Notes: generated from the letters alone by a model not told the origin. A stretch of DNA of 30,410 nucleotides from Myxococcaceae bacterium (GCA_036389955.1 DASVVJ010000282.1:1-30410); one strand, 5' to 3'. Counted from the stretch's first letter, positions 21,297 through 28,916 are shown. Numbers and translations: made by a program.

Positions 21297-21995
21297 CTAC
21301 CCCTTGGTGGGCGGCTCTAACTGCTGCTCTCGGGGGTAATAAAGGCCCAGCGGGTCCCAGACGTACTTCTCGATCGGCACGAAGGTCATGTGACTGACGG
21401 CATACCGCTCGGCAAAGCGCATGAAGCGCTCGGTGACGATGATCCTTCCCCATAGGCCCCGTGGCCGGAACACGTCTTCACCGCTCCAGGTTGCAAGCTC
21501 CAGGGCGAGCCCGTCGATCGCGTCAATCCCCGTGTAGCGGCACCAAATGCACTTCATCGGTTTGCCGATCCATAGGCGGCTGCGCTCCATGTCCAGTGCC
21601 GGGAGGCCATGAGCCGGCATGACGAAAACGTAGGGAGGCGGTGGAGGAGGCTTTGAGCCACGGCGCTTCCTCTTTACACGCAGCACCTTCACGGGGTGAA
21701 AGCCACTGAGCCCCGTGAGCCCCTCGGCCTTGAACGCTTCCGCAAAGCGTTCCGTCACTAGCAAGCCGCCGCTGGGGCCGTCTACGAGATCCCCGAACTC
21801 CTGGCCATGCAGTTCCAGTTCTCCCTGGTGGGGAGGCTGCCAGGTCAGAAAAGTGAGGGGATCCCCGCATTGGGGACATAGCGACGCAGGACCGACTTTG
21901 AGGTCAATCGTGCTGAACTCGGTATCGTGCGTACCTCCGAGTAGCTTATCCAGGACGAAGAAACGCGTAGCGTGCGCGGAATCGTCAGAAGCCAT
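21297..21995 (-). CDS. Two-CxxC(G) motif protein of 232 aa from the myxobacterial cysteine-rich paralogous family. It is the putative immunity protein of the upstream toxin.
   Basis: 'CPQCGDPL' and 'CIWCRYTG' motifs are present. Its ATG overlaps the end of the toxin gene by 11 nt (ATGGCTTCTGA). GC content is lower than in the flanks. Confidence 0.65.
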   Translation of the reverse strand: MASDDSAHATRFFVLDKLLGGTHDTEFSTIDLKVGPASLCPQCGDPLTFLTWQPPHQGELELHGQEFGDLVDGPSGGLLVTERFAEAFKAEGLTGLSGFHPVKVLRVKRKRRGSKPPPPPPYVFVMPAHGLPALDMERSRLWIGKPMKCIWCRYTGIDAIDGLALELATWSGEDVFRPRGLWGRIIVTERFMRFAERYAVSHMTFVPIEKYVWDPLGLYYPREQQLEPPTKG

Positions 21996-23235
21996 CAGGG
22001 AACCTCGCGCGCATCTCGGGCCGACTGTAGATTTGCCGCAAGTAGGCCTCAAACTCCGCAGGGGTTGCGTTGCGGTAGGTACCAAGCCAGCTGATGACTT
22101 CCTCATCTACCTTGCGGTGCCATGCCTGATAACCGTTGTGGGACTCCTTGTCAGCCGCGCGTGTGATGAAGCGGGGGTCCCTCTCGGTGTAATGACCTCG
22201 GAGTGTGGCGTGTTCGTCGAGCTTCTTGGCGATCCGCTTGGAGATCGGGTGGTGTAGTTGCCCTGTCGGTCCGGTTGTTGGCGGACCTCCTCCCATGACT
22301 TGGGCCGCCATGGCCATCGCGGTGCCAGGGAGAGAAATCATGACGGTGCTTCCAACGACGGCCACCGTGCTCACCTGGCCCACATTCGCCAGGTTGAGAT
22401 TCAACTGGGAGGCGCTTACCGAAGCGGCCTGAGGAAAGTTGGGCAGCATGGGCAGCCGTGAGGCCAATGCCGCAGCGCCTCCCGTCATCCCGTAGCTCAC
22501 GACCACGGTCACGGCGAGGACCATGACCCGTGCCACCCTGGGGCCTACCCTGTGCGCGAAGCGCTGCCCGGCCTGCTCCAGTTCCTCGATGACGGTGGCT
22601 TTGTCCGTGGCGCTCTTCAGCTCGCGGCTGGCATCTACCAGTTCCAGGAAGGTGTCCACCCCCAGGTAAACCAGCATCAATGCGGTCATGACAGCCGCCA
22701 CCTTGGTGAACACGGGCTCGGGGTTGGCGGCCAAAGCAACCCAGGTGACAAGGCCCGTGGCAATGACGGTGAAGAAGAGCTGCGGGGCCAGGGTCTCCTC
22801 TACTGCCCTGGAGATGCTCTCTCTGAGTGGATCCAGCGAGAGGCCCAGGGCGACTCCCAGTTTGTCCCACTCGCTCAGTCCCATCACATCGTCGAGCAGG
22901 GAGAGGCAGTTGTCTCTTCGCTGGCCAGGCTCGCAGATGCCGCCGAAGCTCTTACTCATGAGACTCCGCCACCGGGAGTCCGCGTCGTTACTGGCGTAGG
23001 AGGCGCGTACCAGCCAGCCTTGCTGGGGAGCGCGGAGGTGCAAGGGCGCGTTCAGCAGCAGTCCCGTCAGGGACTCCTCGAACGCGTCCGCCTCTACCTT
23101 CACGGGCCTGTTCGAGGTGGTTGGCCTGTACTCCTGTGGTTCGCCGTGCCCCGTGTCCAAGCGCACAACGGGAGTAGTGGCGCACGCGGTAACCAGGCTC
23201 AACATCCAGGCCGCAACGACTCGACGAAATGCCAA
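21985..23235 (-). CDS. Lipoprotein polymorphic toxin (SitA-like) of 416 aa with a C-terminal LHH/AHH-type HNH/EndoVII-fold nuclease-like domain.
   Basis: TTG start follows the SD GGAGGA. Signal peptide MAFRRVVAAWMLSLVTA|C carries a lipobox. The central region has hydrophobic segments. The C-terminus reads '...GQLHHPISKRIAKKLDEH...HNGYQAWHRKV'. The gene is immediately followed, with overlap, by a small immunity-type gene. Confidence 0.6.
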   Translation of the reverse strand: MAFRRVVAAWMLSLVTACATTPVVRLDTGHGEPQEYRPTTSNRPVKVEADAFEESLTGLLLNAPLHLRAPQQGWLVRASYASNDADSRWRSLMSKSFGGICEPGQRRDNCLSLLDDVMGLSEWDKLGVALGLSLDPLRESISRAVEETLAPQLFFTVIATGLVTWVALAANPEPVFTKVAAVMTALMLVYLGVDTFLELVDASRELKSATDKATVIEELEQAGQRFAHRVGPRVARVMVLAVTVVVSYGMTGGAAALASRLPMLPNFPQAASVSASQLNLNLANVGQVSTVAVVGSTVMISLPGTAMAMAAQVMGGGPPTTGPTGQLHHPISKRIAKKLDEHATLRGHYTERDPRFITRAADKESHNGYQAWHRKVDEEVISWLGTYRNATPAEFEAYLRQIYSRPEMRARFPDGF

Positions 23236-23261
23236 GAGATGTCCTCCAGGAGGTTCTGAGC

Positions 23262-24539
23262 CTACTTCCGGCCGTACTTCTTCATCGCCTCCTGGAGCCG
23301 GTCATGCGGAAGGGCGAAGACGCGGACTCCATCCGCGCCCGTCATCGTGTCCGCCGCGAGCATGGAGTTGAGGATGGCTTCCTGCGTGGCCTGCACCGTG
23401 GCCTCGAAGAGCGGGTCCATGCGCTCGTTGGCCAGCATGGACACGGCGGCGACCGGGTTCTCGCCGGACGGCTGCGTCTCCTGCGTCGAGAAGGCGAGGA
23501 AGATGTCGCCCGAGGAGTCCTCTCCCAACCCGCCCATCTTTCCGATGCCCAGCGGCACGCGCCGCGCCAGGCGGGCGAGCTGGTGCGAGAGCAGCGGCGC
23601 ATCCGTGGCGACCACGATGATGATCGACCCCTGCCCCTCGGGGAACGAGGGCAGCGAGGCCCCCTTCTCGGTGCACGCCTTCATCCGGTGGAGCATCGGG
23701 TTGGAGGGCGGCTTGCTCGCGGTAGTGCACGCCTGCAGGTCCGAAATCTCCTCGCCCACCGGAACGCCCGCCACGCTGAGCAGCTTGCGGCGGCCGTAGT
23801 TGCACTGCACCAGCACCCCCACGGTGTAGCCCCCCTGCGCCTCGGGCAGCTTGCGTGAGGCCGTGCCAATACCGCCCTTGAAGCCGTGGCACATCATCCC
23901 CGTGCCTCCGCCCACCGAGCCCTCCGCGACCGGGCCCCCGCTCGCGCCATCGAGCGCCCGGAACACGTGCTCGGGCTTCACGTGGAAGCCCTCCACGTCG
24001 TTCAGGATGCCGTCATAGGTCTCCGCCACCACGGGCAGGCCCAGCTCCCAGGCCATGCCCTTCTTCGAGGCCCATGCAATCACCGCCTGGTGCACCGTGC
24101 CCACGCTGAAGGTGTTGGTGATCATCAGCGGGCCGTGGAGCAGCCCCGATTCGTTCAGCCAATGCGCGCCCGTCATCTCCCCGTTGCCGTTGAGGGCGTA
24201 CGTCGCCGCGAAGACCGGAGCCGCCGCGCGTGCTTTTCCCCGGGGCCACACCGCCGTCACTCCCGTGCGCACCGGGCCCTTGCCCTTCACCAGCGGGCCC
24301 TGCCCCGAAATCAGCGTGGTGTGGCCCACCTCGATGCCTGGCACGTCCGTGATGGCATCCAGTGCCCCGGGCTGCCCTCCGAAGGGGATTCCCAGGTCCC
24401 GGGCGCGGGGCCTCGCGGGTGCGGGGGGGGTGGCGCCTGGCTGAGGCTTCGCGGGAGCTGGCTGCGCGGCACTGGCCCAGGGCCATCCCAGGAGGCACAG
24501 CACGGCGAGCGGGAAGAGCAACTTCTGACGGGAAACCAT
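23262..24539 (-). CDS. Secreted DmpA/ArgJ-fold P1 (S58) family aminopeptidase.
   Basis: Signal peptide MVSRQKLLFPLAVLCLLGWPWASA is present and the body is DmpA-like. ATG follows the SD AAGGGG. Confidence 0.7.
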   Translation of the reverse strand: MVSRQKLLFPLAVLCLLGWPWASAAQPAPAKPQPGATPPAPARPRARDLGIPFGGQPGALDAITDVPGIEVGHTTLISGQGPLVKGKGPVRTGVTAVWPRGKARAAAPVFAATYALNGNGEMTGAHWLNESGLLHGPLMITNTFSVGTVHQAVIAWASKKGMAWELGLPVVAETYDGILNDVEGFHVKPEHVFRALDGASGGPVAEGSVGGGTGMMCHGFKGGIGTASRKLPEAQGGYTVGVLVQCNYGRRKLLSVAGVPVGEEISDLQACTTASKPPSNPMLHRMKACTEKGASLPSFPEGQGSIIIVVATDAPLLSHQLARLARRVPLGIGKMGGLGEDSSGDIFLAFSTQETQPSGENPVAAVSMLANERMDPLFEATVQATQEAILNSMLAADTMTGADGVRVFALPHDRLQEAMKKYGRK

Positions 24540-27384: not shown

Positions 27385-28113
27385 CTAGCGCCAGGTGGCG
27401 GAGAGTTCAGGGAAGAAACGCTGGTGCATGCGCTGGCAGTAGCTCACCAGGTTCTCACGCGACCGGCCAAAGTCCTTCACCGGACTGGACAGCCCCATGC
27501 CGAGCATGTTGCCCACGTACGCGTAGACGGTGGCGTCCACCGTGGTGGGCTGCTCGCCGAGGAAGAAGGGCCTGGAGCCCAGGTAGTCGGAGACCGCCGT
27601 GAGGTCCTCCTGGCCCAGGCGATGCACTTCGTCGGCCGAGTGGCGCCCCATGCCCTGGGCCTGGAGCTGCGCCAGGAACATCTGCCGGTACTGGTCCGTG
27701 GCCGGCGGGCGGTGCTCGGCGGGAAGGAAGTCCAGCATGCCGATGATGAGCTCACGGTAGTGCGACCAGTTGCGCTCGTCCTTGTAGCGCTCGTGGATGA
27801 TGACCCAGTAGAAGTGCTCCTTGAGCATCCGGCGGAACGACGTGGCCACGGCGCGCTGCTCGGCGGAGAGTGCGGCGTCGGGATCCTTGCCCCGGGCGGC
27901 CTTCAGGTGCGAGACGATCAGCGTCGAGTCGCCGATGCGCGTGCCGTCCTGCTCGACGATGTAGGGAACCTTTCCCTTGGGCGCATTGGCGATGTCCAAC
28001 GGCGCCACCTCATAGGGCACGCCCGTGATGCGCAGCCACGTCTCCAGTTTCATACAGGCAGGGCTCACGTTGGGCAGCCCCCACGCACCCCGAGTCTGGA
28101 CCAGACGGATCAT
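27385..28113 (-). CDS. Glutathione S-transferase-family protein (thioredoxin-like N-domain), located upstream of and co-oriented with the P450.
   Basis: ATG 28113 follows the SD GGGGAGA. The gene is 15 bp from the P450 start. Confidence 0.6.
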   Translation of the reverse strand: MIRLVQTRGAWGLPNVSPACMKLETWLRITGVPYEVAPLDIANAPKGKVPYIVEQDGTRIGDSTLIVSHLKAARGKDPDAALSAEQRAVATSFRRMLKEHFYWVIIHERYKDERNWSHYRELIIGMLDFLPAEHRPPATDQYRQMFLAQLQAQGMGRHSADEVHRLGQEDLTAVSDYLGSRPFFLGEQPTTVDATVYAYVGNMLGMGLSSPVKDFGRSRENLVSYCQRMHQRFFPELSATWR

Positions 28114-28223
28114 CTCATGTCTCCCCAAGCGAGTGAGGGTGTGCAGTGTACAGCTTCGCAGGCCCTGGGAAGGCGAGTAACCTGGTCACGGGTTCATCCG
28201 TAGACGACCGTGGAGGAAGCGCC

Positions 28224-28916
28224 ATGAAGCCAGCCCTGTCTCTGAACGGAGCGCCTGCCCGGCTCCTGCCTCTGGATGCCCAGGCTCCCACGGTGGTGGA
28301 GACCGCCACCTTCTCGTTGGGTTGATTCTGGGGTCCGGACGCCCGGTTCGGGTGTCTACCTGGAGTCATCCGCACCCGCGTCGGCTACACCGGCGGCTCG
28401 CTGGCGGATCCGACGTATGAGGAACTGGGGGATCACACCGAAGCCCTGCAGATCGACTTCGATCCGCGGCGCATCTCCTACGTAGAGTTGATGAAGCTCT
28501 TCTGGGAGGACCACGATCCCAGCGAGCGCCCGTACAACCGCCAGTACATGTCCGCCGTGTTCTACCCGAACAAGACGCAGTGGGCGCAGGCGCTCGAGAC
28601 GGGGCAGCAGCGCATGGCGGGCAAGACGGTGGCGCTGCGCACGCCGCTGATGCCGCTGGCCACCTTCTACCGGGCCGAGGACTACCACCAGAAGTACTAC
28701 CTGCGCCGGTACGCGAACCTGATGAGCGAGTTCGAGGGCTACAGCGAGCAGGCGTTCACCGACTCCACCGTCGCGGCGCGGCTCAACGGGTACGTGGGAG
28801 GCTACCGCCCGGTGGAGGCGTTGCAGGCGGAGCTGGGCCCGCTCGGACTGTCCGAGCCGGGCCGCAAGCACCTGGTGTCCCTGGTGACGGAGACCCTGGC
28901 GCGGCGCCGCTACTGA
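28224..28916 (+). CDS. msrA: Peptide methionine sulfoxide reductase MsrA with an in-frame TGA at 28323-28325 replacing the catalytic Cys codon. It is a candidate selenocysteine-containing MsrA, or alternatively a nonsense pseudogene.
   Basis: ATG 28224 follows the SD GGAGGA with a 6-nt spacer. My translation is MKPALSLNGAPARLLPLDAQAPTVVETATFSLG-[TGA]-FWGPDARFGCLPGVIRTRVGYTGGSLADPTYEELGDHTEALQIDFDPRRISYVELMKLFWEDHDPS... It matches the MsrA consensus ATFAGGCFWG...GYxGG...NPTYEEV...HAEAV...FDP...ISY...FW..HDP on both sides of the TGA in a single frame. The track shows only the C-terminal fragment 28488..28916. Confidence 0.6.
28333..28361 (+). promoter_or_regulatory. bSECIS-like stem-loop about 12 nt downstream of the in-frame UGA of msrA.
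   Basis: GACGCCCG-GUU-CGGGUGUC forms an 8-bp stem including one G.U pair. It is extendable by GGU/ACC. The apical loop region GGUUC contains G and U and lies about 20 nt from the UGA. Confidence 0.4.

Follow-up and report, generated by a model that had tools for sequence, protein, structure and literature searches.

Selenocysteine (Sec)-containing peptide methionine-S-sulfoxide reductases (MsrA) with the motif GUFWG/H are protein-repair enzymes and are counted in reviews among the experimentally verified bacterial selenoproteins. Syntrophobacter fumaroxidans was credited with a Sec-MsrA in 2006, and a survey from 2016 contained 18 Sec-MsrA genes. The literature describes the enzyme of Clostridium (Alkaliphilus) oremlandii OhILAs, CoMsrA, as a native Sec protein of the 1-Cys type. 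Its C-terminal helical domain is distinct and is needed for activity. The enzyme has glutaredoxin, not thioredoxin, as its reductant. [quoted passage not shown] Table S2 of Peng et al. records the genera Myxococcus, Corallococcus, Cystobacter, and Stigmatella as users of Sec.

The DNA analyzed here, referred to as the window, is a 30,410-nt stretch of a metagenomic contig. It contains an msrA gene interrupted by an in-frame UGA at the position of the catalytic residue. We infer that the region encodes a Sec-containing MsrA of the 1-Cys type, and assign this reading a probability of about 0.92. The gene and its signals comprise the following features, in which hairpin numbering takes the U of the UGA to be nucleotide 1:

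28212–28216, + strand: Shine–Dalgarno sequence GGAGG, read from the sequence, with a 7-nt spacer before the ATG
28224–28916, + strand: msrA coding sequence of 230 codons including one Sec codon, with the ATG at 28224–28226 and the stop codon TGA at 28914–28916
28302–28709, + strand: PMSR catalytic domain (PF01625), residues 27–162, Pfam E-value 1.9e-36
28323–28325, + strand: UGA predicted to be read as Sec, residue 34, in place of the catalytic Cys of GCFWG and aligned with Cys16 of CoMsrA
28323–28368, + strand: putative bacterial SECIS hairpin, recognized from its fold, the bSECIS criteria, compensatory pairs, and frozen synonymous sites
28323–28332 with 28359–28368, + strand: lower stem of the SECIS, 10 bp, nucleotides 1–10 with 37–46, which takes in the UGA
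28337–28345 with 28349–28357, + strand: upper stem of the SECIS, 9 bp, nucleotides 15–23 with 27–35
28346–28348, + strand: apical loop GUU of the SECIS, which becomes GGUUC when the closing G-C pair opens
28758–28856, + strand: C-terminal helical domain (PF20939), Pfam match to residues 179–211, E-value 1.5e-07; the alignment to PDB structures extends to residue 224

The frame at 28224–28916 contains a single internal stop, the TGA at 28323–28325, and no frameshift along its 230 codons. The translation reads VVETATFSLG up to the internal stop and continues with FWGPDARFGCLPGVIRTRVGYTGG, and the peptides that directly flank the stop are ETATFSLG and FWGPDARFG. The Pfam search was run on the protein with Cys substituted at the internal stop. 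Both domains of the family were matched, and the C-terminal one, which bears the Pfam name [quoted passage not shown], scored 31.6 bits, above the cutoff of 23.7. The G+C content of third codon positions (GC3) of msrA is 0.92 throughout the + frame, which, in a window with 68% GC, agrees with a real gene. Two open reading frames of the opposite strand, 28356–28871 and 28115–28375, overlap msrA and were rejected, since the GC3 of 0.92 and the homology favor the + frame. The sequence-only reading of this DNA had proposed a complete MsrA frame with read-through of the UGA, a Shine–Dalgarno sequence with the ATG at 28224, and a TGA placed precisely at the catalytic Cys of GCFWG. The two domain matches along the 230 codons, the directly readable GGAGG with its 7-nt spacer, and the translation together with the alignment to CoMsrA bear out these proposals.

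The best match of the encoded protein in the PDB is CoMsrA (entries 4LWJ–4LWM, 4U66, and 4W8C), which aligns to residues 26–224 with an E-value of 2.4e-50. CoMsrA, an experimentally characterized selenoprotein, is thereby the nearest solved structure. The active-site residues map without gaps and with a constant offset of 18: Cys16 of CoMsrA corresponds to U34 of the window protein, Tyr47 to Y65, Glu55 to E73, Gln89 to Q107, Tyr90 to Y108, His137 to H155, and Tyr140 to Y158. All the named active-site residues of CoMsrA are therefore kept in the window protein. The msrA of the window, which is mis-annotated, adds a new member to a selenoprotein family that is already known and has been characterized experimentally.

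The two proteins are alike in the G-U-F-W-G motif, where Sec is predicted for the window protein, in the helical domain, and in having no conserved resolving Cys. The sole Cys of the window protein is Cys44, which is encoded within the 3' arm of the SECIS. Position 44 is occupied by Arg, Ser, Ala, or Gly in relatives, and Cys44 is not conserved. A single Cys at a variable position makes the protein a 1-Cys, or strictly speaking 1-Sec, type. The sequences of CoMsrA and the window protein are strongly diverged over the 200 aligned residues, and their hosts differ, one being a low-GC anaerobic Firmicute and the other a myxobacterium-like organism with 68% GC. Unlike CoMsrA, the window protein has a 25-residue N-terminal extension, conserved in myxobacteria only, and the non-conserved Cys44. 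Its SECIS differs from that of CoMsrA by the additional 10-bp lower stem that takes in the UGA. A further difference is that no selenoprotein glutaredoxin partner was seen near the window gene in the Pfam analysis of the window open reading frames. A glutathione S-transferase (GST)-like gene with GST_N_4 and GST_C_6 domains, similar to Tom37/metaxin, is located at 27385–28128 on the - strand of the window, divergent from msrA. It adjoins msrA on L081 and L082, which are identical contigs, and is not found beside msrA in the closest relative (locus L001) or in any other locus. The GST-like protein was rejected as a candidate reductant partner of MsrA because this adjacency is not conserved.

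The UGA codon is conserved among the relatives of the gene. Homologues were scanned in species representatives, one genome per species, and 80 loci were returned. The catalytic motif could be placed in 75 of these 80 nearest loci, to which the counts refer. The catalytic codon is TGA in 65 of the 75, TGT in eight, all from Microcoleus, and TGC in two from Dehalococcoidales. All twelve myxobacterial relatives, from Archangium, Vitiosangium, Hyalangium, and Myxococcaceae metagenome-assembled genomes (MAGs), carry TGA; isolate genomes are included among them, with both a complete and a draft genome of Archangium gephyra. The closest relative, a Myxococcaceae bacterium MAG (L001), has an MsrA with 87% identity and shares the P450, SDR, and Na/Ala-symporter neighbors. 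The carriers of TGA span at least eight phylum-level groups, and those from outside the myxobacteria include Syntrophales/Syntrophobacter, Desulfobacterales, Dehalococcoidia, Anaerolineales, Planctomycetota, Acidobacteriota, and Firmicutes (Desulforamulus and Syntrophomonadaceae), among others. The sequence-only reading had asked whether close relatives contain Cys and lack the hairpin; they carry TGA and the hairpin instead. It had also described Sec-MsrA as rare, which does not apply to this subfamily: judged from the catalytic codon, most of the nearest species representatives (65 of 75) are Sec forms.

All phyla show protein-level conservation of the strand N-terminal to the UGA, ETATF[AS]LG. 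The ATG located 33 codons before the TGA, and the GGAGG just upstream of it, are present in 13 of 13 sequences, consisting of the window and the twelve myxobacterial loci. The conservation of the upstream strand, the ATG, and the GGAGG implies that the ribosome must read through the UGA. TGA is also the most common genuine stop codon in the window, where it ends 11 of 20 genes, msrA included. The code has therefore not been reassigned, and reading of the internal UGA calls for a local recoding signal.

The hairpin that is a candidate for this signal begins at the UGA itself if its lower stem is included. The upper stem starts 11 nt past the UGA, the spacing between the UGA and the loop is 20 nt, and folding of the upper hairpin by itself gives -13.7 kcal/mol. 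The expectation from the sequence-only reading, a hairpin with a G/U-containing loop about 12 nt downstream of the UGA, is thus closely matched. All four published bSECIS criteria agree with the element, namely the loop (GUU, or GGUUC), the 9-bp stem, the 20-nt spacing, and the energy of -13.7 kcal/mol. The loop G23-G24-U25-U26-C27 fits N1-G-[G/U]-N-N2, and its G23 and C27 can pair. The bSECIS model is a structural one, and binding of SelB to the window element is a prediction. Unlike the bSECIS model, no curated covariance model of Rfam matches the element: the search of the whole window at the gathering threshold and a permissive search of positions 28150–28550 returned no relevant family, only chance matches. 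The MFE of the whole fold is -28.6 kcal/mol with z = -1.27, and 19 of 200 shuffled sequences fold equally well. The fold of the single sequence is therefore no better than chance at 68% GC, and the significance of the hairpin comes from the comparative data only.

Covariation was computed from the 65 Sec forms, aligned without gaps. Compensatory changes occur in three pairs of the upper stem. Pair 19:31 is found as U-A in 23 sequences, G-C in 18, and G-U in seven; pair 23:27 is G-C in 39 and A-U in 14; and pair 18:32 occurs as C-G, U-G, U-A, A-U, and G-C. The covariation score of the alignment is 0.160, compared to 0.117 for shuffles, none of which reached 0.160 in 500 attempts, and to at most 0.096 for controls in which the register was slid. 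In the segment of nucleotides 15–37, the Sec forms have a mean energy of -11.8 kcal/mol, and 63 of the 65 are at -7.5 kcal/mol or lower.

Because the SECIS lies inside a conserved peptide, synonymous sites could be used as an internal control. Entropies at conserved four-fold degenerate third positions amount to 1.3–1.9 bits along the gene. In contrast to this, third positions within the hairpin, C21, G24, and G30 in hairpin numbering, are frozen. Two such sites belong to the stem, in the alanine codon at +6 from the Sec (C in 39 of 40 sequences; 0.17 bits) and the glycine codon at +9 (G in 59 of 65; 0.58 bits). In the loop, G24, which is the third position of an Arg or Gln codon, does not vary among the 65 Sec forms. 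The spacer codons Gly+3 and Pro+4 vary freely, and freezing is thus confined to the stem and loop of the hairpin.

The residues at +6 (Ala or Ser) and +10 (Cys, Arg, or Ser) after the Sec co-vary, which corresponds to alignment columns 19 and 31 (window positions 28341 and 28353). They do so because the first bases of their codons pair in the stem, as G-U, G-C, or U-A. Judged from the aligned sequences, the RNA structure dictates which amino acids are used at these sites, and the sole Cys of the window protein is one of them.

The lower stem has a different record. Across phyla, approximately 72% of its alignment cells are paired, and it contains no compensatory changes. In myxobacteria, its 3' arm uses codons ending in A or T (GGA in 12 of 13 sequences, CCT in nine of 13) despite a GC3 of about 0.9. 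The lower stem is probably a clade-specific extension, for which the alignments offer support within myxobacteria only. RNAalifold, applied to the 65 sequences, favors another small hairpin, which pairs columns 1–10 with 20–28 and has no covariation. All of its columns are invariant and constrained by the protein, and it is not preferred; as a model of the RNA, it may nevertheless represent an alternative, competing conformer.

The Cys-MsrA of the subfamily, found for example in Microcoleus, some Dehalococcoidales, and Chloroflexi, have the same domain architecture, 47–55% identity (approximate values), and the motif GCFW[GS]PDA.FG. They differ from the window gene in having TGT or TGC instead of TGA and a hairpin that is weak or absent. 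We compared 13 Cys forms with respect to the hairpin. Twelve of them have a weak hairpin or none, with an energy of -0.2 to -7.7 kcal/mol for the same region. At the sites frozen in Sec forms, the Cys forms use GCG as opposed to GCC, and GGA or GGC as opposed to GGG. The Microcoleus genes, with the codons GCG and GGA, form no hairpin (-0.2 to -1.6 kcal/mol). Three further Cys forms encode FWGPDARFG, identical to the peptide of the window, with the codons GCG, CGT, CGC, or GGC, and reach -3.7 to -7.7 kcal/mol. The exception is L017, a Cys form with a strong hairpin of -13.1 kcal/mol. This locus is from a Dehalococcoidales MAG (contig CAZXAJ010000033.1, 3052–3100) and combines a TGC codon with a retained SECIS-like hairpin. 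In a rough neighbor-joining tree, L017 and L032, another Cys form, nest within a Sec clade. L017 looks like a recent conversion of Sec to Cys with a fossil SECIS. A separate variation of the motif is present in a Sec-MsrA from a Gemmataceae MAG (L030; contig DATLYH010000188.1, around position 2697), which has G-U-F-W-C in place of the usual GUFWG. The resulting UxxC arrangement suggests a possible resolving Cys three residues past the Sec.

Three other accounts of the interrupted frame have to be weighed against Sec insertion. If the TGA were a recent lesion in a Cys-MsrA, or an error of sequencing or assembly, no full-length protein would be made. The splitting of the gene by gene callers into products of 33 and 141 residues and the unexceptional statistics of the single-sequence hairpin are in line with such a nonsense pseudogene. 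However, the same TGA occupies 65 of the 75 homologous loci across many phyla, the reading frame contains no additional stops or frameshifts and keeps a GC3 of 0.92 throughout, and the frame, start codon, and Shine–Dalgarno sequence upstream of the TGA are kept in the window and in all twelve myxobacterial loci. Furthermore, the 693-nt msrA, including the TGA, is identical in three independent assemblies (JGI 3300034028, SRR10954974, and ERZ27253072), which excludes a sequencing error. We regard a lesion or an error as extremely improbable. The same low standing is given to the production of two separate polypeptides, a 33-residue leader and a truncated MsrA initiated at an internal GTG or ATG, with the hairpin serving as a regulatory element or attenuator. 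Database entries of 178 and 141 residues, and the separate calls of 33 and 141 residues, would suit this arrangement, but the truncated forms are without the nucleophile of GCFWG and would be inactive. The segment FWGPDA.FG...GV.RT.VGY.GG, located between the TGA and the internal starts, is among the most conserved of the family, and the ETATF.LG strand ahead of the TGA shows conservation across phyla and can be aligned to CoMsrA, starting at residue 8 of that structure, neither of which fits a discarded leader and a late start.

The host might instead be devoid of Sec machinery and decode the UGA as another amino acid, through near-cognate read-through with Trp or Cys or through a reassigned code. 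The searches for the machinery give this account some footing. The source is a metagenomic contig, and the search for sel genes covered the window and the flanks of 83 msrA loci. selA, selB, and selD were not found by Pfam among the 26 open reading frames of the 30-kb window, or in the locus flanks, and ARAGORN found no tRNA-Sec in the window, which contains no tRNA gene at all, or around msrA at those 83 loci. SelB was searched for, with a view to Myxococcaceae and Archangiaceae, with the Anaeromyxobacter protein from a paper supplement as the query, using a word-index search, an exhaustive search of representatives, which are unnamed, and a cluster look-up; the named matches were Anaeromyxobacter-like sequences and a Polyangia MAG only. 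The database homologue P0012 is stored with a Trp at the catalytic position (GWFWG), the likeliest cause of which is a gene caller that reads TGA as Trp. Against decoding by another amino acid stands the use of UGA as the terminator of 11 of the 20 window genes, including msrA, which contradicts a reassigned code. Trp in the position of the nucleophile would leave the enzyme dead. A hairpin that is conserved and has an invariant G in its loop is the element that a mechanism based on SelB requires, and it would have no role in simple read-through. In addition, related genera are listed as users of Sec, and native Sec is reported for the orthologous enzyme of Clostridium. Decoding of the UGA as an amino acid other than Sec is therefore very improbable, although slightly less so than the two accounts above. 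The reading of the gene as a Sec-MsrA, put forward from the sequence alone, is supported by the conservation of the UGA, the fit to bSECIS, the covariation, the frozen sites, and the match to CoMsrA.

A mechanism of synthesis and catalysis for the Sec-MsrA can be proposed, in which we infer the binding of SelB, the actual insertion of selenium, and the reductant by analogy with described systems. Translation would begin at the ATG at 28224. When the ribosome reaches the UGA at 28323–28325, the downstream mRNA hairpin would act as a bacterial SECIS, as in the systems of E. coli and Clostridium. The complex of SelB, GTP, and Sec-tRNA(Sec) would bind the GU-containing apical loop located 20 nt past the UGA and deliver Sec in place of termination by RF2, and translation would run on to the TGA at 28914. 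In the finished enzyme, the selenolate of residue 34 would attack methionine sulfoxide and be converted to a selenenic acid. Because the sole Cys44 is not conserved, recycling is most likely carried out by a reductant of the glutaredoxin/glutathione type, as in the C. oremlandii enzyme.

A more far-reaching evolutionary scenario can be formulated, which we consider doubtful. According to it, the MsrA with a helical domain would be ancestrally and predominantly Sec enzymes, the Cys forms would be reversions, and the myxobacterial SECIS would have shaped the protein, with Cys44 available for co-option. The 65 Sec forms among the 75 loci, the nesting of L017 and L032 within the Sec clade, and the fossil SECIS of L017 fit an ancestral Sec. 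Cys44, having arisen through the pairing requirements of the SECIS, could act as a resolving residue by forming a Sec34-Cys44 selenenylsulfide.

The window resembles a piece of a myxobacterial chromosome, and its remaining genes are ordinary housekeeping or envelope genes according to Pfam. The open reading frame at 9928–12216 on the - strand encodes 762 residues and matches domains of the eukaryotic Major Vault Protein (MVP), with E-values of 2.9e-45 for MVP_shoulder, 1.5e-32 for Vault_2, 5.5e-31 for Vault, and 1.4e-21 for Vault_3. From these matches, it may encode a bacterial homologue of MVP that contains several vault repeat domains, and it may merit separate attention. A segment of approximately 2 kb at 21316–23262 contains no open reading frame with the typical high GC3 and has a composition unlike that of the rest of the window. 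Pfam gave no match for the four candidate open reading frames of this segment.

The Sec codon has consequences for the annotation of the gene and its relatives. Public gene calls on identical contigs split msrA into a gene of 33 residues and one of 141, a mechanical list of open reading frames gives a truncated frame at 28488–28916, and most of the close homologues in databases are fragments of 178 residues. The prediction of the sequence-only reading that gene callers would truncate msrA is borne out by these calls and fragments. The NCBI entry from Vitiosangium sp. GDMCC 1.1324 (P0043) is a 182-residue "peptide methionine sulfoxide reductase" without the catalytic residue. This entry and P0012, the homologue stored with Trp, are annotation artefacts of the Sec codon.

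The finding leaves the knowledge of Sec decoding and of MsrA chemistry unchanged. It provides a clean example of an RNA structure that constrains synonymous sites, and even amino-acid choices, within a coding region. Its main value is the correction of annotation across a whole myxobacterial clade, as the public entries for msrA and its relatives from Archangium, Vitiosangium, Hyalangium, and many MAGs are fragments of 141–182 residues without the catalytic residue. Because the database entries are fragmented, counts of the selenoproteome of soil myxobacteria likely miss these genes.
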